Source: Escherichia coli (GTDB taxonomy: Bacteria; Pseudomonadota; Gammaproteobacteria; Enterobacterales; Enterobacteriaceae). Taken from it: DNA of 64,000 bases. Numbering within the stretch: the first letter of the stretch is position 1; each line of letters opens with the position of its first letter. Shown here one piece after another: positions 4,686 through 61,312 of this stretch. The stretch is taken from NCBI RefSeq assembly GCF_003334815.1, contig NZ_QOWO01000009.1, one strand, 5' to 3'. A program made the translations under genes and the position numbers. The notes below the pieces were generated by a model. The model did not search any database and was not told the origin of the DNA. It saw only the letters and a list, made by a program, of their open reading frames with translations.

Positions 4686-4845
4686 GGGTTATTCCTTATC
4701 TATCTAATAACGTTGAGTTTTCTGGAACCTGTCCCATTGAACTCTCGCCGGAAAGCTCAATAAGACAGGTTCTACGTTTAGTTGCCGCGCTTTTATATGC
4801 GCTTGATTTACAACATCTTCTGGATAATTTTTACCAGAAAAATCA

Positions 4846-5610
4846 CTAATTCTTTCGTTGCTCCAGACGACGCAGAGAACGCTCACGGCGGCTCTCTTCA
4901 CGACTTCTGTCGAGCAAAATTTCTTCGATAAAGGCCAGATGGCGATGCGATGCTTCGCGCGCTTCTTCCGGCTTACCGGCCATAATCGCTTCAAATATGC
5001 GGGTGCGGTGACTACTCACCAGCGGCAGCATCTCGCGACGCGAATAGAGCAATTCGAAGTTCTGGCGGACATTCTGGGCCAACATCGGCTCCATACACCT
5101 TAGCAGATGAAGCAGAACTACATTGTGGGCCGCTTCGGTGACGGCAATCTGATACTGGAGTACGGCGTTTGATTCCGCGTCCAGATCGCCAGACTGCTGC
5201 GCCAGCTCTATGGCGTGGTGGAGTTCACGGATGCGTTCCTTGTCTTCATCGGTACTACGCAGCGCGGCGTAATAAGCGGCGATACCTTCCAGGGCGTGTC
5301 GTGTTTCGAGCAAGTCATACTGTGACTCAGGATGGTCGGAGAGCAGCTCCACCAGCGGATCGCTGAAGCTTTGCCATAGGCTGCTCTGGACAAAAGTGCC
5401 GCCACCCTGGCGACGAAGCAACAAGCCCTTCGCTTCGAGACGTTGAATCGCCTCACGCAAGGAGGGACGGGAGACGTCAAACTGTTTTGCCAGTTCGCGT
5501 TCCGGTGGGAGTTTTTCGCCCGGGCGGAGAGTGCCTTCGAGGATCAAAAACTCCAGTTGCTGCTCAATCACATCGGAGAGTTTTGGTTGGCGGATTTTGC
5601 TGTAGGCCAT
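4846..5610 (-). CDS. pdhR: Pyruvate dehydrogenase complex repressor, GntR family (254 aa)
   Basis: ORF track frame; canonical start [18 protein letters not shown] is 11 codons inside the longest ORF; HTH GntR-type N-terminus. Confidence 0.93.
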
Positions 5611-5641
5611 GAGTTCCTGTCTTAAGCCACTTGCCGAAGTC

Positions 5642-5658
5642 AATTGGTCTTACCAATT
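5642..5658. promoter_or_regulatory. PdhR operator palindrome aattggtcttaccaatt in the pdhR promoter/leader
   Basis: Perfect inverted repeat ATTGGT-N3-ACCAAT about 30 bp upstream of the pdhR start codon; matches the known PdhR box. Confidence 0.7.
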
Positions 5659-6039
5659 TCATGTCTGTGACGCTAAAGTAACAAAGTATTCACCTTATGT
5701 CCATACAGGTTTTGATTGAAATCATGAAACTGTGCACATTTTAACAACTTGACATATATAACGTTTCAAAGTTGTAACTATGCACAAATGTAGACTTTAC
5801 GTAGGAAAGGAGTTTTTTAACGATTATTAAACTATAAAAATCCGAATTGAACCGATTCACTTACCAATTTTGTGATTTTTAATTCAATTAAAACGAATTT
5901 AAATTCATTCTACATATTGAGAGGGGTTGAGGCTGAGCTTTACAAACGGTTTCTTTTTAAGCAACTCATCTTCAACCATGCATAAAGCGGGTGCATTCGC
6001 TGCCGCATACCATTATTCTTGATCTGACGGAAGTCTTTT

Positions 6040-16060: not shown

Positions 16061-16268
<208 letters not shown>

Positions 16269-16272
<4 letters not shown>

Positions 16273-16669: not shown

Positions 16670-16698
16670 TATAAAAAAGGCGCAGAATCCTGCGCCTT
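16670..16698 (-). terminator. Hairpin aaggcgcaggattctgcgcctt plus U-run on minus strand, between secA and mutT
   Basis: Perfect stem with T-run on the minus-strand side immediately 3' of secA stop. Confidence 0.5.
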
Positions 16699-16717
16699 TT
16701 ACTTCAACAGTTAGCTT

Positions 16718-19423
16718 TTATTGCAGGCGGCCATGGCACTGCTTGTATTTTTTACCAGAACCGCACGGGCAAGGATCGTTACGTCCTACTTTGCGCTCTC
16801 CGGTTTGCGCCGCCAGTGCAGCTGCGGCTGCAGAGTCGTCATCCTGATGGCTAAGCTGCTGCATTTGCGCTAAACGCTCGGCTTCCATACGACGCTGTTG
16901 TTCCAGCTCCTCAACCTCTTCAGGCATACGTACCTGAACTTTGCTCAGCGTACTGATAACTTCATATTTCAACGACTCCAGCATCGCTGCAAACATGGAG
17001 AACGATTCACGTTTGTATTCCTGCTTCGGATCTTTCTGTGCGTAGCCACGCAGGTGGATACCCTGACGCAGATAGTCCATCGCTGCCAGGTGCTCTTTCC
17101 ACAGGGAGTCAAGCGTTTGCAGCATGACGCCTTTCTCGAAGTGACGCATCATCTCAGCACCAACCACTTCTTCTTTACGCTGATACACTTCGATGGACTG
17201 CGCCAGAATGCGCTCACGCAGCGTCTCTTCATGCAGTTCTGGTTCTTTATCCAGCCACTCGGCAATTGGCAAATCGAGGTCGAAATCGTTCTTCAGACGT
17301 TCCTGCAGCCCCGGAATATCCCACATTTCTTCCAGCGACTGTGGTGGAATGTAGGCATCAATGGTCGCTTTGAACACATCTTCACGAATGCTGTTAATGG
17401 TTTCGCTCACATCGCTGACATCCAACAGTTCGTTACGCTGGGAGTAAATGGCGCGACGCTGATCGTTAGCCACGTCATCATATTCCAGCAGTTGCTTACG
17501 AATGTCGAAGTTACGGCTTTCAACTTTACGCTGGGCGTTGGCAATCGCTTTAGTCACCCACGGGTGTTCAATGGCTTCGCCTGGCTTCATACCCAGTTTA
17601 CGCATCATGCCGGATACTCGGTCGGAAGCAAAAATACGCATCAGCGCATCTTCCATCGACAGGTAGAAACGGGAAGAACCAGCATCCCCCTGACGACCAG
17701 AACGACCGCGCAACTGGTTATCGATACGACGGGATTCGTGACGCTCGGTACCGATGATATGCAGGCCACCTGCTTCCAGTACCGCATCGTGACGTACCTG
17801 CCAGTCGGCTTTAATTTTTTCAATTTGCTCTGCGGTCGGATTTTCCAGCGCGGCAACTTCTGCCTGCCAGCTACCACCGAGCACAATATCTGTACCACGA
17901 CCCGCCATATTGGTCGCGATAGTCACCGCAGCCGGATAACCTGCCTGAGCAACAATCGCCGCTTCGTTGGCGTGGAATTTGGCGTTCAGGACGTTGTGCT
18001 TAATACCGGCTTTGGTCAGTTCGTTTGACACCAGCTCCGATTTTTCGATGGAGATAGTACCCACCAGCACCGGCTGGCCTTTCGCAGTACGTTCTTTGAT
18101 ATCTTCAATGATCGCCTGAATTTTTTCCGCTTCAGTCATGTAGACCAGGTCCGGCAGATCTTTACGAATCATTGGACGGTTGGTCGGAACAACGACGGTA
18201 TCCAGCTTGTAGATTGAGCTAAATTCGAAAGCTTCGGTATCAGCAGTACCGGTCATCCCCGCCAGTTTTTCATACAGACGGAAGTAGTTCTGGAAGGTGA
18301 TCGAAGCCAGCGTTTGGTTTTCGTTCTGGATCTGCACACCTTCTTTCGCTTCCACAGCCTGGTGCAGACCATCGGACCAGCGACGGCCCTGCATGGTACG
18401 ACCGGTGTGTTCGTCAACGATGATAACTTCACCATCTTTAACGATGTAGTCGACGTCACGGGTAAACAGCGCATGAGCGCGCAGCGCCGCCGTTACGTGG
18501 TGCATCAGCATGATGTTGGCCGGAGAGTACAGAGACTCCCCTTCATCCATGATGCCCTCTTTCACCAGCAGTTCTTCAATCAGCACCAGACCACGTTCGG
18601 TCAGGTTCACCTGGCGAGATTTTTCGTCCACCGAGAAGTGGCCTTCGCCCTGGAAGGTTTCGGAGTCTTCTTTTTCCTGACGGATCAGGTGCGGAATAAT
18701 TTTATTCACGCGTTTATACATTTCCGAGCTGTCTTCTGCCGGGCCGGAAATGATCAGCGGTGTACGCGCTTCATCGATCAGGATGGAGTCCACTTCGTCC
18801 ACCAGCGCATAGTGCAGTTTACGCTGTACACGTTCTTCAGGGCTGAACGCCATGTTGTCGCGCAGGTAGTCAAAGCCGTATTCGTTGTTCGTACCGTAAG
18901 TGATGTCAGCTGCGTAAGCTTCGCGCTTTGCCGGTGCTGGCATGCCCGGCAGGTTGATACCGACAGTCAGGCCAAGGAATTCAAACAGCGGACGGTTGTT
19001 TTCGGCGTCACGTTGCGCCAGGTAGTCGTTGACGGTAACTACGTGCACGCCTTTACCGGTTAGTGCGTTCAGGTAAGCAGGCAGCGTTGCGGTCAGGGTT
19101 TTTCCTTCACCGGTACGCATTTCGGCGATGCAGCGTTCGTTAAGAACCATACCGCCGAGTAACTGAACGTCGAAGTGACGCATACCAAAGACGCGCTTAC
19201 TTGCCTCACGTACCACGGCGAAAGCTTCCGGGATCAGATTTTCCAGCACTTCGCCTTTTTCCAGACGTGCACGAAACTCTGCGGTTTTCCCTTTCAGTTC
19301 TTCGTCGGAGAGTTTTTCCATCTCCGGTTCCATGGCATTGATGATGTTGACCACTTTGCGCATCCGGCGCAGGGTGCGATCGTTACGACTACCGAAAACT
19401 TTAGTTAACAATTTGATTAGCAT
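16718..19423 (-). CDS. secA: Preprotein translocase ATPase SecA (901 aa)
   Basis: ORF track 901 aa [26 protein letters not shown]-terminal zinc-binding [14 protein letters not shown]. Confidence 0.98.
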
Positions 19424-21245: not shown

Positions 21246-22397
21246 TTAATCAGCTTGCTTACGCAGGAATGCTGGGATATCCAGATAATCCGGCTCTTTC
21301 GCAGTTTGCGGCGCATTGTCATTCACGACTTTAGCAACCGGCTTCTGCTCCTGGGTCAGCGGAGCCATCCCATGCTGCTGGTAGCGATCCATCACTGGCT
21401 GCTGAACCTGCTTATTGGTCACCAGAGTGATTTCAGGACGTTTGTCCATGCCGATACCTGTCGCAACAACGGTTACGCGCAGCTCGTCATTCATATCCGG
21501 GTCAAGAGAAGTACCGATAACCACAGTCGCGTTGTCGGAAGCAAATGCACGGATGGTGTTACCTACCGTTTCGAACTCATCCAGACGCAGGTCGAAGCCC
21601 GCCGTGATGTTAACCAGCACGCCGCGCGCGCCAGACAGGTCGATATCTTCCAGCAGCGGAGAAGAGATAGCCATTTCAGCAGCTTCTTCCGCACGGTCTT
21701 CACCGCTCGCCACGCCAGAACCCATCATTGCGTAGCCCATCTCAGACATTACGGTGCGTACGTCTGCAAAGTCCACGTTCATCAAACCCGGACGAGTAAT
21801 CAGTTCAGCGATACCTTGCACAGCGCCTTTCAGTACATCGTTCGCTGCGCCAAACGCATCCAGCAGGGAGATACCGCGGCCCAGAACTTTCAGCAGTTTG
21901 TCGTTCGGGATAGTGATCAGAGAGTCCACATGCTTGGACAGTTCAGTGATCCCCTGCTCCGCGAATGCCATACGCTTCTTGCCTTCAAAGTTGAAAGGCT
22001 TAGTGACGACAGCAACGGTCAGGATACCCAAATCTTTTGCCACTTCAGCGACGACTGGTGCTGCACCTGTACCGGTACCACCACCCATACCCGCAGCAAT
22101 AAAGACCATGTCTGCACCTTCCAGCGCCGCACGCAATGCATCGCGATCCTCATCAGCCGCATTGCGGCCAACTTCTGGATTAGCGCCAGCGCCCAGTCCT
22201 TTGGTGATACCGCTACCGATTTGAATCGTCTGTCCAACCGCTGTTTTACGCAGCGCTTGTGCATCGGTATTTACCGCGAAGAATTCAACACCTTCAATGC
22301 GCTCGCGCACCATGTGTTCAACAGCATTACCGCCGCCGCCGCCGACGCCGATGACTTTAATCACCGCGTCATTGGTAAGTTCCATTGGTTCAAACAT
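21246..22397 (-). CDS. ftsZ: Cell division GTPase FtsZ (383 aa)
   Basis: Tubulin signature GGGTGTG, N-terminus [26 protein letters not shown]. Confidence 0.98.
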
Positions 22398-22457
22398 AGT
22401 TTCTCTCCGATTTGTGCCTGTCGCCTGAGGCCGTAATCATCGTCGGCCTCATAAAAA

Positions 22458-23720
22458 TTAAAACTCTTTTCGCAGCCAACTATTGAGTCGCTTGATCCAC
22501 GAGCCAACTGATGCTGTAACACGTTTTTCTACTTCAGCTTCACCGTTAAGATGTGACTCTTTCCCATAGTGAAGCAATCCCACCGCCGTCGAATAATACG
22601 GCTCCTGAGCATAATCCGTTAAACCGGTAATGTTCAGCGGCGCGCCGATACGCACTTGCGTATGAAACACGCGCTGAGCACAGGCTGCAAGACCTTCGAT
22701 CTGCGCTGCGCCACCGGTTAATACAATGCCTGCCGCCAGGTGATGTTTAACCCCTTGTTGGCGAAGCTTTTCCTGCAACTGCAATATCTCTTCGTTGACC
22801 AGGTTGAGCAGCTCGGTATAGCGCGGCTCGATCACCTCTGCCAGTGTCTGACGTTGCAGACTCCGTGGCGGACGACCACCTACGCTCGGCACTTCCACGC
22901 TCTCATCTTTTCCAACGATGGAACCCAGCGCACAACCGTGGCGAACTTTAATCGCTTCGGCGTCGCTTGGCGGCGTGCCAAAGGCGTAAGCGATATCACT
23001 GGTCACGACATTGCCAGCATAAGGAATTACCTTAGTGTGGCGCAATGCCCCACCGGTATAAACGGCGATATCCATTGTACCACCACCGATATCGACGACG
23101 CAGACACCCAGTTCACGTTCATCTTCCGTCAATACCGAATAACTTGATGCCAGTCCGGCAAATATCAGTTGGTCAACTTTCAGCCCACAACGTTCAACCG
23201 CTTTGACGATGTTTTTCGCCATATCGTTGTGACATGTGATCAGGTGCACTTTTGCCTGCATCCGCACGCCCGAAAGTCCTACCGGATTCTTGATCCCTTC
23301 CTGATAGTCAATCGCATACTCTTGCGGGATCACATGCAGCACACGATGCTCATCGCGCACACGCACCGATTTCGCGGTATGGACGACGTTTTCCACATCT
23401 TCTTGCGTCACTTCTTCTTCAGAAATAGGCACCATACCAATTTCATTCTGGCAGCTGATGTGCTTACCAGAAAGCGCCAGATATACCGAAGAGATCTGAC
23501 AATCTGCCATCAATTCTGCCTGGTCAATGGCGCGTTGTACGCACTTGACCACGGATTCGAGGTCGTTCACCCCGCCTTTATCCATACCACGCGACGGGCA
23601 GCTGCCCACGCCAATGATATTGACCATACCGTCGGGCAGAACTTCCCCTACTAAAGCGGCAACCTTCGCGGTACCAATCTCCAGTCCTACTACCAGTTTT
23701 CTGTCCGTCGCCTTGATCAT
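22458..23720 (-). CDS. ftsA: Cell division protein FtsA, actin-like ATPase (420 aa)
   Basis: ORF track 420 aa; overlaps ftsQ stop by 4 bp. Confidence 0.97.
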
Positions 23721-43334: not shown

Positions 43335-43993
43335 ACTTAACTCCACTGTCACACTTAACTCCCTTTCCCTTATTGGAATGCAGAGAAATAATCCTGAAGA
43401 ATATGATTTATCATGCATATAAAATAAGAAAAAGCAAAATGAGTAAAATTCGGAAAACATAAAGATACGGGTTCTGATAAAAACAGAATCCATTGCCGTG
43501 GAATGAGTCATTTACCACAGCATAATAATCCATAATGTTTTTGTTGCGAAAACAATCTAATCATAACTACCGCGAATACTCAATCATCTACAAAATGGAT
43601 TAAATGTGCTTATTTAATAATTAATTTATATATTTAATGCATTAATTCTTAACATTAATTGATCAATAATATTCACCAAATCAATATCAAAAAAAATCGC
43701 AAAACATATAATTCAATACAAATCATCAGGATAGGTTTTGCAACGCGTGCATTTTGTCCCCTTTTTCCTCGTTGATTAGATGCAAAAATTTATGCTGAAA
43801 TATGTCAACCGATGAAAAGCGTCGGTAGTTAAGCAGAAATTAATATCGCTTACTTTAACCACCGCAGCACAATTAGCTAATTTTACGGATGCAGAACTCA
43901 CGCTGGCGGGACGTTTTTATTGCGTCAGGGTTGACATCCGTTTTTGTATCCAGTAACTCTAAAAGCATATCGCATTCATCTGGAGCTGATTTA

Positions 43994-44080
43994 ATGACTC
44001 ACATCGTTCGCTTTATCGGTCTACTACTACTAAACGCATCTTCTTTGCGCGGTAGACGAGTGAGCGGCATCCAGCATTAA
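43994..44080 (+). CDS. leuL: leu operon leader peptide with four consecutive Leu codons (28 aa)
   Basis: [28 protein letters not shown]-stop read from sequence. Confidence 0.93.
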
Positions 44081-44095
44081 GCCAGCACGCAGTCA

Positions 44096-44128
44096 AACAA
44101 AAAACCCGCGCCATTGCGCGGGTTTTTT
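44096..44128 (+). terminator. leu attenuator terminator hairpin aaaacccgcgccattgcgcgggttttttt
   Basis: Perfect GC stem + T7 run between leuL and leuA. Confidence 0.9.
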
Positions 44129-44172
44129 TATGCCCGAAGCGAGGCGCTCTAAAAGAGACAAGGACCCAAACC

Positions 44173-50108: not shown

Positions 50109-50335
50109 AAAAAAAACCAGCAGGTATAATCTGCTGGCGGGTGATTTTACACCAATACTCAGTCACACATGATGCAGGCAAGTCAACTTTCAGAATTGCG
50201 GTCATCCCACTGCATCAGTCCTTCAAGCATGGTTAATCGTTGTGGGACGCTTAACCAACGCAACCAGCACAACTTCGCTGTCGCGGTAAAATAGTGCTGA
50301 TAAAACTGACGCATGGGGCACCCCCTTGCTTCATC
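50109..50335 (-). ncRNA. sgrS: Dual-function small RNA SgrS (about 227 nt) with 3' intrinsic terminator
   Basis: Contains sgrT ORF; 3' end hairpin ccagcag-N7-ctgctgg followed by U8 (plus strand 50109-50137); divergent from sgrR. Confidence 0.85.
50183..50314 (-). CDS. sgrT: SgrT small protein (43 aa) encoded within SgrS
   Basis: MRQFYQHYFTATAKLCWLRWLSVPQRLTMLEGLMQWDDRNSES-stop. Confidence 0.85.
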   Translation of the reverse strand: MRQFYQHYFTATAKLCWLRWLSVPQRLTMLEGLMQWDDRNSES

Positions 50336-50402: not shown

Positions 50403-52058
50403 ATGCCATCTGCTCGTCTGCAACAACAGTTCATCCGCCTGTGGCAATGCTGCGAGGGTAAATCGCAGGACACAACGCTCAACGAACTGGCAGCGTTATT
50501 GAGCTGCTCGCGTCGTCATATGCGCACCCTGCTCAACACCATGCAGGATCGCGGCTGGCTGACGTGGGAAGCGGAAGTCGGGCGCGGTAAACGCTCGCGT
50601 CTGACATTCCTCTATACCGGGCTGGCGCTTCAGCAACAGCGGGCGGAAGACCTGCTGGAGCAGGATCGTATCGATCAACTGGTGCAGTTGGTTGGCGACA
50701 AAGCGACTGTGCGGCAAATGCTGGTTTCTCATCTGGGCCGCAGCTTCCGCCAGGGGCGGCACATCCTGCGCGTGCTCTACTATCGTCCGTTGCGTAATCT
50801 GCTACCTGGCAGCGCATTGCGCCGTTCCGAAACCCATATCGCCCGGCAAATCTTCAGTTCGCTAACGCGCATAAATGAGGAAAATGGGGAACTGGAAGCA
50901 GACATCGCCCACCACTGGCAGCAAATTTCACCGCTTCACTGGCGTTTCTTTTTGCGTCCAGGAGTCCATTTTCACCATGGTCGTGAACTGGAAATGGACG
51001 ATGTGATCGCCTCTTTAAAACGAATCAATACGCTGCCGCTCTATTCGCATATTGCTGACATTGTGTCGCCGACGCCCTGGACGCTGGATATCCATCTCAC
51101 GCAACCGGACCGCTGGTTACCGTTACTGCTGGGGCAAGTTCCGGCGATGATCCTGCCGCGCGAATGGGAAACCCTCAGTAACTTTGCCAGCCATCCCATC
51201 GGCACCGGTCCGTATGCGGTGATTCGCAACAGCACCAATCAACTGAAAATTCAGGCATTCGATGACTTCTTCGGTTACCGGGCATTAATCGACGAAGTTA
51301 ACGTCTGGGTTCTGCCGGAAATTGCCGACGAGCCAGCCGGAGGGCTGATGCTAAAAGGTCCACAGGGCGAGGAAAAAGAGATTGAAAGCCGCCTGGAGGA
51401 AGGTTGCTACTATTTACTGTTCGACAGCCGCACCCATCGCGGGGCGAATCAGCAAGTCAGGGACTGGGTAAGCTATGTGCTTTCTCCAACTAATCTGGTC
51501 TATTTCGCTGAGGAACAGTACCAGCAACTGTGGTTCCCGGCTTATGGACTGCTCCCCCGTTGGCACCATGCCCGCACCATAAAGAGCGAAAAACCGGCTG
51601 GCCTGGAAAGCCTCACCCTAACCTTTTATCAGGATCACAGTGAGCATCGGGTGATTGCCGGGATCATGCAGCAGATTCTGGCAAGTCACCAGGTCACGCT
51701 GAAAATCAAAGAGATCGACTACGATCAGTGGCATACAGGAGAGATCGAAAGTGATATCTGGCTAAACAGCGCCAACTTTACCCTGCCGCTGGACTTCTCT
51801 GTTTTCGCACATTTATGCGAAGTGCCACTGCTACAACATTGCATTCCCATTGACTGGCAAGCCGACGCTGCTCGCTGGCGCAATGGCGAGATGAATCTGG
51901 CGAACTGGTGCCAGCAACTGGTCGCCAGCAAAGCGATGGTGCCATTATTGCACCACTGGCTGATCATTCAGGGGCAACGCAGTATGCGCGGCCTGCGCAT
52001 GAATACCCTCGGCTGGTTCGATTTTAAATCAGCGTGGTTTGCGCCACCGGATCCATGA
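50403..52058 (+). CDS. sgrR: Transcriptional regulator SgrR (551 aa)
   Basis: Canonical start [15 protein letters not shown]; N-terminal HTH + solute-binding-like domain. Confidence 0.93.
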
Positions 52059-52094
52059 TTGCTGGTTGATAACAAAATCACTACACTAACGCCG

Positions 52095-52200
52095 TTCTCA
52101 ACGGGGTGCCACGCGTACGCGTGCGCTGAGAAAATACCCGTCGAACCTGATCCGGATAACGCCGGCGAAGGGATTTGAGGCTCCTTCTCAAGTCCTTTGC
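52095..52200 (+). ncRNA. TPP (thi-box) riboswitch in thiBPQ leader
   Basis: Conserved elements ggggtgcc ... ctgagaaaatacccg ... gaacctgatccggataacgccggcgaaggga read directly upstream of thiB. Confidence 0.85.
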
Positions 52201-52221
52201 CACTCTTTTTTGAGGTGCAAA

Positions 52222-53205
52222 GTGTTAAAAAAATGTCTGCCCCTGCTGTTGCTGTGCACAGCGCCCGTTTTCGCTAAACCCGTTCTGACTGTTTATACCT
52301 ACGATTCCTTCGCCGCCGACTGGGGGCCTGGTCCGGTGGTTAAAAAAGCCTTTGAAGCCGACTGTAATTGCGAACTGAAACTGGTGGCGCTGGAAGATGG
52401 CGTTTCGCTTCTCAACCGTCTACGGATGGAAGGCAAAAACAGTAAAGCCGATGTGGTGCTGGGGCTGGATAACAACCTGTTAGACGCCGCCAGTAAAACC
52501 GGACTGTTTGCCAAAAGCGGTGTGGCAGCGGATGCCGTTAACGTTCCCGGCGGCTGGAATAATGACACTTTCGTACCGTTTGATTATGGCTACTTCGCCT
52601 TCGTTTATGACAAGAACAAACTGAAAAACCCGCCACAAAGCCTGAAAGAACTGGTTGAGAGCGATCAAAACTGGCGGGTGATTTATCAGGATCCGCGCAC
52701 CAGTACACCGGGGCTGGGTCTGTTGCTATGGATGCAAAAAGTCTATGGCGATGACGCCCCACAAGCCTGGCAGAAACTGGCGAAGAAAACGGTCACGGTC
52801 ACCAAAGGCTGGAGCGAAGCCTACGGCCTGTTTTTAAAAGGTGAAAGCGATCTGGTACTGAGTTACACCACCTCTCCGGCTTATCACATTCTCGAAGAGA
52901 AGAAAGATAACTACGCCGCCGCGAACTTCAGCGAAGGTCACTATCTGCAAGTGGAAGTCGCCGCCCGCACCGCTGCCAGCAAGCAGCCGGAGCTGGCGCA
53001 AAAATTCCTCCAGTTTATGGTTTCTCCGGCTTTCCAGAATGCGATCCCAACCGGCAACTGGATGTATCCGGTGGCAAACGTCACGCTGCCTGCCGGTTTT
53101 GAAAAATTGACCAAACCCGCAACCACGTTGGAGTTCACGCCAGCCGAAGTGGCGGCACAACGTCAGGCATGGATTAGCGAATGGCAACGCGCCGTCAGCC
53201 GTTAA
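52222..53205 (+). CDS. thiB: Thiamine ABC transporter periplasmic binding protein (327 aa, GTG start)
   Basis: Signal peptide LKKCLPLLLLCTAPVFA; SBP fold. Confidence 0.93.
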   Translation: MLKKCLPLLLLCTAPVFAKPVLTVYTYDSFAADWGPGPVVKKAFEADCNCELKLVALEDGVSLLNRLRMEGKNSKADVVLGLDNNLLDAASKTGLFAKSGVAADAVNVPGGWNNDTFVPFDYGYFAFVYDKNKLKNPPQSLKELVESDQNWRVIYQDPRTSTPGLGLLLWMQKVYGDDAPQAWQKLAKKTVTVTKGWSEAYGLFLKGESDLVLSYTTSPAYHILEEKKDNYAAANFSEGHYLQVEVAARTAASKQPELAQKFLQFMVSPAFQNAIPTGNWMYPVANVTLPAGFEKLTKPATTLEFTPAEVAAQRQAWISEWQRAVSR

Positions 53206-54791
53206 TTCCCGGCTGGTTAATTCCAGGTGTAAGCGCCACCACGCTGGTGGTAGCGGTTGCGCTGGCGGCGTTTCTCGCCCTGTGGTGGAACGCGCCGCAG
53301 GATGACTGGGTGGCAGTCTGGCAGGACAGCTATCTGTGGCATGTGGTGCGCTTCTCCTTCTGGCAGGCGTTTCTCTCGGCACTGCTCTCTGTCATACCCG
53401 CGATATTCCTCGCCCGCGCGCTCTATCGCAGGCGCTTTCCGGGTCGGCTGGCGCTGTTGCGTCTGTGTGCAATGACCTTGATCCTCCCGGTGTTGGTCGC
53501 TGTTTTCGGCATTCTTAGCGTCTATGGTCGCCAGGGCTGGCTGGCAACACTCTGCCAATCGCTCGGTCTGGAGTGGACCTTTTCGCCCTACGGCCTGCAA
53601 GGTATTTTGCTGGCCCATGTGTTTTTTAATCTGCCGATGGCGAGCCGCTTATTACTCCAGGCACTGGAAAACATCCCCGGCGAACAGCGTCAACTTGCCG
53701 CCCAGCTTGGGATGCGTAGCTGGCATTTTTTCCGCTTCGTCGAATGGCCGTGGTTACGGCGACAAATCCCGCCGGTTGCTGCGCTTATCTTTATGCTCTG
53801 TTTCGCCAGCTTCGCCACCGTGCTATCGCTGGGGGGCGGTCCGCAGGCGACCACTATCGAGCTGGCAATCTATCAGGCGCTGAGTTACGACTACGATCCT
53901 GCCCGCGCGGCAATGCTGGCGCTGCTCCAGATGGTGTGCTGCCTCGGGCTGGTGCTGTTGAGTCAGCGATTGAGTAAGGCCATTGCGCCCGGCACCACGC
54001 TGCTGCAAGGCTGGCGCGACCCGGACGATCGTCTGCATAGCCGCATTTGCGACACGGTGTTAATTGTGCTGGCGCTGCTGCTGTTGCTGCCACCGTTACT
54101 GGCGGTGATCGTCGATGGGGTAAATCGCCAGTTGCCGGAAGTGCTGGCACAACCGGTGCTGTGGCAGGCGCTGTGGACCTCGTTGCGTATTGCGCTGGCG
54201 GCAGGTGTATTGTGCGTAGTGCTGACCATGATGCTGCTATGGAGCAGTCGCGAACTGCGGGCGCGGCAGAAAATGCTGGCGGGTCAGGTGCTGGAGATGA
54301 GCGGCATGTTGATCCTCGCCATGCCGGGGATTGTGCTGGCTACCGGCTTCTTTTTACTGCTCAACAACACTATCGGCCTGCCACAATCTGCTGACGGCAT
54401 TGTGATTTTCACCAATGCGTTAATGGCGATCCCTTATGCGCTGAAAGTGCTGGAAAACCCGATGCGCGATATCACCGCCCGCTACAGCATGTTATGTCAG
54501 TCGCTGGGGATTGAAGGCTGGTCACGCTTAAAAGTGGTGGAGCTGCGCGCCCTGAAACGTCCACTGGCGCAGGCGCTGGCCTTTGCATGCGTGCTGTCGA
54601 TTGGTGATTTTGGCGTGGTGGCGTTGTTCGGTAACGATGATTTCCGCACCCTGCCGTTTTATCTCTACCAGCAAATTGGCTCCTATCGCAGCCAGGACGG
54701 TGCGGTCACCGCGTTAATTCTGCTGCTGCTCTGTTTTCTGCTGTTTACCGTGATTGAAAAACTACCGGGGCGAAATGTTAAAACTGACTGA
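53181..54791 (+). CDS. thiP: Thiamine ABC transporter permease (536 aa)
   Basis: ORF track 536 aa, duplicated permease domains; overlaps thiB and thiQ. Confidence 0.95.
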
Positions 54792-55473
54792 TATCACCTG
54801 GCTTTACCACCATTTGCCGATGCGTTTTAGCTTAACGGTGGAACGCGGCGAGCAGGTGGCGATCCTCGGGCCAAGCGGCGCGGGTAAAAGTACCCTGCTG
54901 AATTTGATCGCCGGTTTTCTGACGCCAGCCAGCGGTTCGCTGACTATCGATGGCGTAGATCACACAACTATGCCGCCGTCACGCCGTCCGGTGTCGATGC
55001 TGTTTCAGGAGAACAACCTGTTCAGCCACCTGACGGTCGCACAGAACATCGGGCTGGGGCTAAATCCGGGATTGAAACTGAACGCGGTACAGCAGGGGAA
55101 AATGCACGCTATCGCCCGCCAGATGGGGATTGATAATTTAATGGCGCGGTTACCGGGCGAGCTTTCCGGCGGTCAGCGACAGCGAGTGGCGTTAGCGCGT
55201 TGTCTGGTACGCGAACAGCCGATTTTATTGCTCGATGAACCGTTCTCTGCGCTCGATCCGGCGTTACGTCAGGAGATGTTGACGCTGGTGAGCACGAGCT
55301 GCCAGCAGCAAAAAATGACGCTATTGATGGTGTCGCACAGCGTGGAAGATGCGGCGCGGATCGCCACGCGCTCGGTAGTAGTCGCCGACGGGCGCATCGC
55401 CTGGCAGGGTATGACCAATGAGTTGTTGAGCGGTAAGGCGAGTGCTTCGGCACTATTGGGGATTACGGGTTAG
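54775..55473 (+). CDS. thiQ: Thiamine ABC transporter ATP-binding protein (232 aa)
   Basis: Walker [13 protein letters not shown] signature LSGGQRQR. Confidence 0.95.
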
Positions 55474-60870: not shown

Positions 60871-61312
60871 GCCGCATCCGGTATGTAACGCCTGATGCGA
60901 CGCTGACGCGTCTTATCTGGCCTACACGCTGCGATTTTGTAGGCCGGATAAGCAAAGCGCATCCGGCATTCAACGCCTGATGCGACGCTGGCGCGTCTTA
61001 TCAGGCCTACGCGCTGCGATTTTGTAGGCCGGATAAGCAAAGCGCATCCGGCATTCAACGCCTGATGCGACGCTGGCGCGTCTTATCAGGCCTACGCGCT
61101 GCGATTTTGTAGGCCGGATAAGCAAAGCGCATCCGGCATTCAACGCCTGATGCGACGCTGGCGCGTCTTATCAGGCCTACGCGCTGCGATTTTGTAGGCC
61201 GGATAAGCAAAGCGCATCCGGCATTCAACGCCTGATGCGACGCTGGCGCGTCTTATCAGGCCTACACGCTGCGATTTTGTAGGCCGGATAAGCAAAGCGC
61301 ATCCGGCACGAA
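60871..61312. repeat. Tandem REP/BIME array: about 5 copies of an 85-bp unit, each unit containing two inverted REP palindromes
   Basis: cctgatgcga recurs at 60891, 60976, 61061, 61146, 61231 (exact 85-bp period); the three middle units appear identical. Confidence 0.9.

Follow-up and report, generated by a model that had tools for sequence, protein, structure and literature searches.

Transcriptional TPP riboswitches of Gram-positive bacteria, such as the thi-box leaders of Bacillus subtilis, carry at their end an intrinsic terminator, made up of a hairpin and a U-tract. The Escherichia coli thiB leader shares with them the aptamer family and the competition between P1 and anti-P1, but it differs in that no terminator was found and its output is the masking of the Shine-Dalgarno (SD) sequence. 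Two related switches occur in E. coli itself. The thiC switch resembles that of thiB in its TPP aptamer, in cotranscriptional sensing bounded by anti-P1 formation, and in dual effects on translation and mRNA; however, thiC has a larger platform, Rho-dependent termination and a regulatory pause at the start codon, whereas thiB is compact and passes through a transient strand-displacement intermediate. The thiM switch, whose aptamer has been crystallized, has the same aptamer class, the same design of a translational OFF switch that masks the SD, and an anti-P1 alternative, and the thiM and thiB structures have been called 'very similar' by the authors (PMC11487190). The two differ in the genes they precede, which are the salvage kinase genes thiMD in the case of thiM and transporter genes in the case of thiB. 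The thiB switch is already known: it is in Rfam, in the RefSeq annotation and in several mechanistic papers, and the exact leader, also referred to as tbpA or SroA, has been characterized in PMC10578472, PMC11487190 and PMC8609307. It lets E. coli turn off thiamine import once the pool of the cofactor has been filled and serves as a model for the cotranscriptional, or kinetic, control of a translational riboswitch.

We analyzed a stretch of E. coli DNA of 64,000 nucleotides (hereafter, the window), for which a sequence-only reading had proposed a TPP riboswitch controlling thiBPQ at positions 52059-52221. These coordinates are those of the entire intergenic gap between the stop codon of sgrR (ORF end at 52058) and the GTG start codon of thiB at 52222, a start that the same reading had named and that agrees with the RefSeq annotation. 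The sequence from 51950 to 52350 is shared at 100% identity with E. coli K-12 MG1655, among many other strains, and 5,400 of 5,426 complete E. coli genomes contain a match to it. On MG1655, RefSeq places a 'riboswitch / TPP riboswitch' feature on the same bases, with sgrR upstream and thiB-thiP-thiQ downstream. The genes of the locus were assigned by NCBIfam equivalog models as follows:

50403-52058, + strand: sgrR (NF010149 SgrR equivalog, 1127 bits against a cut-off of 476); its stop codon adjoins the putative thiB promoter
52222-53205, + strand: thiB (tbpA), periplasmic thiamine/TPP-binding protein, with the GTG start given by RefSeq (TIGR01276 equivalog, 647 bits against 317)
53181-54791, + strand: thiP, ABC transporter permease (NF006953 ThiP equivalog, 1189 bits against 970)
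54775-55473, + strand: thiQ, ABC transporter ATPase (NF008039 ThiQ equivalog, 445 bits against 298)

The overlaps of 25 nt between thiB and thiP and of 17 nt between thiP and thiQ are as expected for a single operon. The proposed control of thiBPQ is borne out by the equivalog assignments of ThiB, ThiP and ThiQ, by the RefSeq feature, and by published TPP-dependent translational repression (PMC10578472, PMC11487190). Compared to the E. coli thiB/tbpA riboswitch as described (SroA, RF00059), the aptamer, the sequestering and antisequestering stems, the SD and the GUG all match and nothing differs; we are almost certain that the element is the published thiB (tbpA) TPP riboswitch, a cis-acting OFF switch in the thiBPQ leader. 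Its value as a discovery is small, the element being known, although a riboswitch with its expression platform proved recognizable from raw sequence alone. The small RNA SgrS lies nearby, divergent from sgrR (50109-50335, - strand; Rfam, 228.8 bits, above the gathering score), and is found upstream of sgrR-thiB in 15 of 20 related loci scanned. The 3′ end of sgrR precedes the leader in most aligned upstream regions.

Identification of the aptamer rests on the Rfam model RF00059, which matches with 65.9 bits against a gathering score of 54.3, so that the low covariance score named in the sequence-only reading as grounds for refutation was not found. The match covers model positions 1-105 of 105 with an E value of 1e-10 (whole 64-kb window, both strands), and ends 31 nt upstream of thiB on the same strand, followed by thiP and thiQ. 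The opposite strand of the leader gave no Rfam match. The thi-box core reported in the thiB leader, CTGAGA...ACCTGATCCGGATAACGCCGGCGAAGGGA, is present at 52126-52173 on the + strand, occurs once in the 64-kb window, and had no match in 100 dinucleotide-preserving shuffles. When the Rfam alignment was mapped on the sequence, all five helices P1-P5, whose absence would likewise have counted against the proposal, were seen to form:

52092-52191, + strand: TPP riboswitch aptamer (= stable RNA SroA), RF00059 match, with the RefSeq feature at the same MG1655 bases
52097-52101 (CUCAA) with 52175-52179 (UUGAG), + strand: P1 (Rfam alignment), with 99.3% of cells paired in 54 orthologs
52102-52105 and 52107 with 52134 and 52137-52140, + strand: P2 (Rfam alignment)
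52108-52112 with 52121-52126, + strand: P3 (Rfam alignment), with compensatory changes at 3 pairs
52126-52131, + strand: J3/2, CUGAGA, the pyrimidine-sensing part; G52128 is G35 of the literature
52146-52149 with 52168-52171, + strand: P4, in the pyrophosphate-sensing arm of the thi-box; region invariant in 54 orthologs
52152-52155 with 52162-52165, + strand: P5, in the pyrophosphate-sensing arm, with loop AUAACG; region invariant in 54 orthologs

Standard base pairs account for 22 of the 23 mapped model pairs. The exception, G52149-A52168 in P4, is non-canonical in all 54 orthologs as well. U52096-G52180 is a possible sixth pair of P1, and the thiB aptamer lacks the P3a that the Rfam model allows as an option. 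The ligand-contacting CUGAGA of J3/2 and the thi-box ACCUGAUCNGGNUAANNCCNGCGNAGGGA are both exact at 52126-52173, and nearly every base of them is invariant in the 54 orthologs. Direct TPP binding and the accompanying structure change have been established in the literature by RNase H protection, by smFRET, and by the loss of response in G35C and G17C mutants (PMC11487190, PMC8609307, PMC10578472); G35C abolishes TPP regulation (PMC11487190). The identity of the leader RNA with SroA is taken from PMC3511261. The only other Rfam match in the leader, to the plant microRNA family MIR8139 at 52167-52200, is below threshold (17.5 bits where the gathering score is 90; E 0.59). It coincides with the anti-P1 hairpin and was dismissed as spurious.

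The interval first proposed for the riboswitch contains it but is not all RNA. [quoted passage not shown]

52059-52064, + strand: putative -35-like hexamer of the thiB promoter, TTGCTG, separated from the -10 by 17 nt (8 of 12 consensus positions matched)
52082-52087, + strand: putative -10 hexamer TACACT (many relatives have TACAAT); the published starts lie 5-7 nt downstream
52092-52094, + strand: transcription start region, with +1 at 52092 (Berman et al. numbering) or 52094 (Grondin et al. numbering)

The Grondin et al. numbering, in which U130 is the middle of the GUG, G121 belongs to the SD, G35 lies in CUGAGA and the toeprint is at C144, puts +1 at 52094 (PMC11487190). That of Berman et al., in which nucleotides 5-9 equal nucleotides 95-99 and both pair with nucleotides 85-89, and in which G17 is a ligand-site residue, puts it at 52092 (PMC10578472). 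In Salmonella, 5′ RACE located the start 129 nt upstream of the GTG (PMC3511261). At the -10 position T-A-C-A-x-T is kept in every aligned ortholog, and a TTGC/TTTC block is conserved at the -35 position (52059-52064). A consensus scan of 51700-52400 called no sigma-70 promoter, and the two hexamers are proposed from the alignment and the published starts. A natural experiment bears on them: approximately 1,047 of 5,400 E. coli genomes, including O157:H7, carry an islet of about 1 kb between sgrR and thiB with espY2, encoding the type III secretion effector EspY2 on the opposite strand (for example, positions 4997-6000 of locus L082, E. coli O157:H7 F6667), and in these genomes the sequence becomes homologous to the window again from about 52057, immediately before the putative -35. 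The position of this junction supports the proposed thiB promoter, and 52059-52091 would be promoter and untranscribed spacer rather than RNA. At its other end, the proposed interval stops one base short, since the SD hairpin includes 52222; the switch proper extends from about 52092 to 52222. The O157:H7 F6667 locus differs in a further respect, setA being absent between leuD and sgrT.

Downstream of the aptamer, the expression platform contains two alternative structures and the SD that they compete to mask or expose:

52164-52201, + strand: anti-P1/extended antisequestering helix, 52164-52180 with 52186-52201, loop CUCCU (-19.8 kcal/mol alone)
52195-52222, + strand: SD-sequestering hairpin, CUUUGC..CUC (52195-52200 and 52203-52205) with GAG..GCAAAG (52212-52214 and 52217-52222), loop UUUUUU
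52212-52217, + strand: Shine-Dalgarno sequence GAGGUG, in which G121 of the literature is 52214

The pairing that had been proposed between a pyrimidine-rich segment and the SD next to the GTG was recovered as a 9-bp hairpin, in which CUUUGCCACUC (52195-52205) pairs with GAGGUGCAAAG (52212-52222, that is, the SD and the first base of the GTG) at -10.6 kcal/mol. The pyrimidines need to be divided in two, however: the strand that opposes the SD is CCUUUGCCACUC (52194-52205), while a second tract, CUCCUUCUCAA (52181-52191), instead invades P1. The cis-regulatory RNA called in the sequence-only reading is confirmed, but the anti-P1/antisequestering helix, which makes the element a switch, had gone unmentioned there. 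At the top of this helix, the linker UCUCAA (52186-52191), a repeat of the P1 5′ strand, pairs with the 3′ strand of P1; at its base, the anti-SD tract pairs with the 3′ strands of P4 and P5. The helix therefore cannot coexist with P1, P4/P5 or the SD hairpin.

Folding calculations were compared for the aptamer-enforced, nascent and full-length transcripts. With the aptamer enforced, the SD hairpin forms, and the unpaired probability is about 0 for 52212-52214 and 52217-52222. The antisequestering helix is the minimum free energy (MFE) structure of nascent transcripts ending at 52201-52210. In the full-length ligand-free RNA, the MFE structure combines P4/P5, a short anti-P1 hairpin and the SD hairpin at -48.4 kcal/mol; forcing the SD open raises this to -41.6 kcal/mol. 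Since the equilibrium fold does not have an open SD, the ON state would have to be kinetic or ribosome-assisted. In these models, the open SD is best interpreted as a kinetic, cotranscriptional outcome and not as the thermodynamic ground state, in agreement with the published data and the modest regulatory range. Relative to the published work on thiB, the folds add only that, in the nearest-neighbour model, the open-SD state lies off the equilibrium minimum. The Rfam aptamer fold itself has -37.4 kcal/mol compared to -50.7 kcal/mol for the unconstrained MFE; we do not count this against the riboswitch, because the ligand, tertiary energies and folding kinetics are outside the model.

To assess conservation, representative genomes were scanned for ThiB, giving 80 loci, all from Enterobacteriaceae, with 81-98% protein identity. 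The thi-box core precedes thiB in 78 of the 79 loci with upstream sequence, and 14 of the 20 orthologous loci scored with RF00059 exceeded the gathering score. Across 54-73 orthologous leaders the core does not change, in contrast to the neighbouring loops, which vary. The covariation alignment comprised the 54 orthologous leaders in which P3 is short. Its invariant parts are the aptamer core, the linker CUCAA, CCUUUGCC (anti-SD strand) and GGUGCAAAGUG (SD and start); the P3 loop, the anti-P1 loop and the loop of the sequestering hairpin vary freely. The segment GGTGCAAAGTG (52214-52224) is identical in 54 of 54 leaders; the two SD bases preceding it vary in a few, with G52212 nearly invariant. 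Paired cells amounted to 94.1% in the aptamer, 95.9% in the sequestering stem and 95.7% in the antisequestering helix, compared to 25-62% for controls slid by 1-3 columns (at most 57.6% for the sequestering stem and at most 62% for the antisequestering helix). The aptamer match, its helices, their conservation and the gene context are shown by the present analysis.

Covariation, as seen in this alignment, supports only P3 among the helices. In the sequestering stem, one loop-proximal pair changes from C-G to U-A in 4 sequences and the other columns are nearly invariant, and the antisequestering helix showed no covariation in the 54 Enterobacteriaceae leaders, its columns being almost invariant. 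Orthologs with AAAGG instead of GAGG as the SD carry CCCCCU instead of CCACUC as the partner tract and keep the CUCAA linker. The platform is conserved as the model requires, with conservation of sequence and conservation of pairing inseparable among such close relatives.

Together with the literature, these features support the following sequence of events. Transcription begins at about 52092-52094 from a putative weak sigma-70 promoter adjoining the sgrR stop, and the first ~88 nt fold into the TPP aptamer with P1-P5 and the thi-box. TPP bound while the leader is being transcribed locks P1 (52097-52101 with 52175-52179) and P4/P5, leaving the anti-SD strand at 52195-52205 free to pair with 52212-52222, so that the SD and the first base of the GTG are buried. 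Binding of 30S subunits and translation of thiB then fall, with the drop in operon mRNA a secondary effect. If no TPP is bound, the linker at 52186-52191 invades P1 and the helix grows to 52164-52180 with 52186-52201, using up the anti-SD tract before the SD is transcribed, and the ribosome site emerges open.

Ligand binding, translational repression, the role of the linker as invader and the cotranscriptional window have all been demonstrated in the literature on the identical sequence. The published repression by TPP is modest, 2- to 4-fold: it amounts to 2.3- to 3.9-fold for reporter fusions (2.3- to 3.2-fold for the translational ones), and TPP weakens the 30S toeprint at +15 by a factor of 2.2 (PMC11487190). 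The SD mutant G121C abolishes expression and the start-codon mutant U130A, in the GUG, behaves as expected (PMC11487190). [quoted passage not shown] A mutation that weakens the SD-sequestering stem breaks the TPP response, and mismatch and compensatory rescue experiments fit strand displacement with the P1 5′ strand as incumbent, the 3′ strand as substrate and the linker as invader (PMC10578472).

Whether the mRNA level is also controlled is a point on which two groups differ. An alternative reading is that premature transcription termination, intrinsic or Rho-dependent, is the main mode of control rather than translation initiation. TPP represses a transcriptional lacZ fusion 1.6- to 3.9-fold, also when the start codon has been inactivated, and the related thiM and thiC switches use Rho (PMC11487190). 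In addition, a stable RNA of ~93-100 nt, SroA, accumulates from the thiB leader. However, the terminator scan of 51700-52400 found no terminator-like site on the + strand, and the SD hairpin is followed by GUGUUAAAAAAA and not by a U-run; attenuation by an intrinsic terminator was accordingly rejected. In single-round in vitro transcription only the full-length product was seen at all TPP concentrations, and bicyclomycin leaves repression unchanged (PMC10578472), so that Rho would seem not to be what lowers thiBPQ mRNA. The thiM switch, by contrast, uses Rho and requires 34 codons for its mRNA-level effect, against 12 codons for thiB (PMC11487190). Moreover, the effect on thiB mRNA depends on an intact SD, as would be expected if it followed from the exclusion of ribosomes (PMC11487190). 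We therefore consider termination an improbable main mode, and regard control of translation initiation as the primary one.

The same ~93-100 nt species, detected as a discrete RNA in both E. coli and Salmonella (PMC3511261), could alternatively be a trans-acting small RNA (SroA/sYJ20) for which the position before thiB is incidental. In Salmonella, tigecycline induces the RNA while tbpA mRNA is unchanged, and the deletion phenotype is complemented in trans (PMC3511261). Against this, a full aptamer, linkage to thiB in 78 of 79 loci and a conserved SD-sequestering platform are what a cis switch needs and a trans-acting sRNA does not, cis regulation has been demonstrated directly (PMC11487190, PMC10578472), and SroA has no established target. 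A purely trans-acting main role is, in our judgment, very improbable. Trans and cis roles are not mutually exclusive, and beyond cis switching SroA (~93 nt), whose induction in Salmonella by tetracycline as well as tigecycline again leaves tbpA mRNA unchanged (PMC3511261), may persist with a separate trans-acting or stress role, an addition that seems to us unlikely and that would not replace the cis function.

A different assignment of the platform strands within the same riboswitch has also to be weighed, in which the linker tract at 52181-52191 would be the anti-SD strand and would pair with UUUGAGG at the SD (52209-52215) once P1 forms. UUUGAGG is common to the P1 3′ strand (52174-52180) and the SD region, so that a partner of one can pair with the other, and the linker CUCAA is invariant in the 54 orthologs. 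Nevertheless, the aptamer-enforced fold prefers the local hairpin of 52195-52205 with 52212-52222 over linker-SD pairing, and orthologs with an AAAGG SD alter the CCACUC tract and not the linker. Furthermore, deletion or randomization of linker nucleotides 95-99 locks the switch OFF (PMC10578472), indicating that the linker is dispensable for sequestration and required for its relief. On the strength of the locked-OFF mutants and the constrained fold this assignment was rejected; it is already largely refuted, and we give it hardly any credence. That the thi-box is a chance resemblance without function has a negligible probability given the Rfam E value of 1e-10, 0 of 100 shuffles, an invariant core in 54-73 leaders and the published mutants, and nothing was found in its favour.

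The leaders of relatives showed several insertions. Among 72 distinct Enterobacteriaceae thiB leaders, 19 carry an insert of 20-200 nt in the P3 hairpin (Citrobacter, Klebsiella, Raoultella and relatives). In one set, the distance from the start of P1 to CTGAGA is ~150-230 nt (L004, L009, L012, L025, L029, L040, L041, L048, L052, L057 and L068; an example is L025 2194-2350), and in another the P3 inserts are shorter (L010, L011, L014, L016, L061, L065, L075 and L080). The ~120-nt form of the insert folds as a long extension of P3 at -50 to -65 kcal/mol and belongs to a dispersed intergenic repeat that every one of the 5,426 E. coli genomes carries (median 11 places, ~85% identity). This repeat resembles ERIC; a full-text literature search found no paper linking ERIC elements with a thiamin riboswitch. 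The 5 loci tested whose inserts measure 146 nt or more all fell below the Rfam TPP gathering score, and such long-insert leaders are probably missed by Rfam-based annotation.

The SD-sequestering hairpin of Citrobacter sp. wls619 (L009 2355-2487) has a second insert of ~120 nt within its loop, flanked by CCTTTGCCACC and TGAGGTGCAAAGTG. This insert, which includes GCTCACCCC...CCTGGGGAT, resembles a member of the same repeat family in reverse orientation, and each of the two inserts of this leader falls in a hairpin loop. A Pluralibacter sp. MAG (L066 2250-2500) keeps the full expression platform ahead of thiB but no more of the aptamer than its 3′ end, starting with GGCGAAGGGA, the 5′ two-thirds of the aptamer being replaced by unrelated AT-rich sequence. 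This loss could be due to rearrangement, insertion or an assembly artefact of the MAG.

Other RNA families were matched elsewhere in the window. The Rfam family RF02797, 'PssrA, plasmid-encoded Shigella sRNA A', matches at full length at 22389-22478 (- strand, 105.5 bits), and the 3′ end of the match holds a ribosome-binding site and the ATG of an ORF, which we take to begin with the FtsZ N-terminus. With the start of FtsZ inside it, the family would match the chromosomal ftsA-ftsZ junction and nothing plasmid-specific. Also above their Rfam gathering scores were the leucine operon leader (43980-44129, + strand, 145.8 bits), tp2 (4688-4801, + strand, 103.4 bits) and STnc40 (16673-16742, - strand, 84 bits). 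Four matches to naRNA4 (RF02564) lie 85 nt apart at 60942-61262 on the + strand, each with exactly 60.2 bits, and two more at 16076-16269 on the - strand; these look like tandem repeat arrays of the REP/BIME type.
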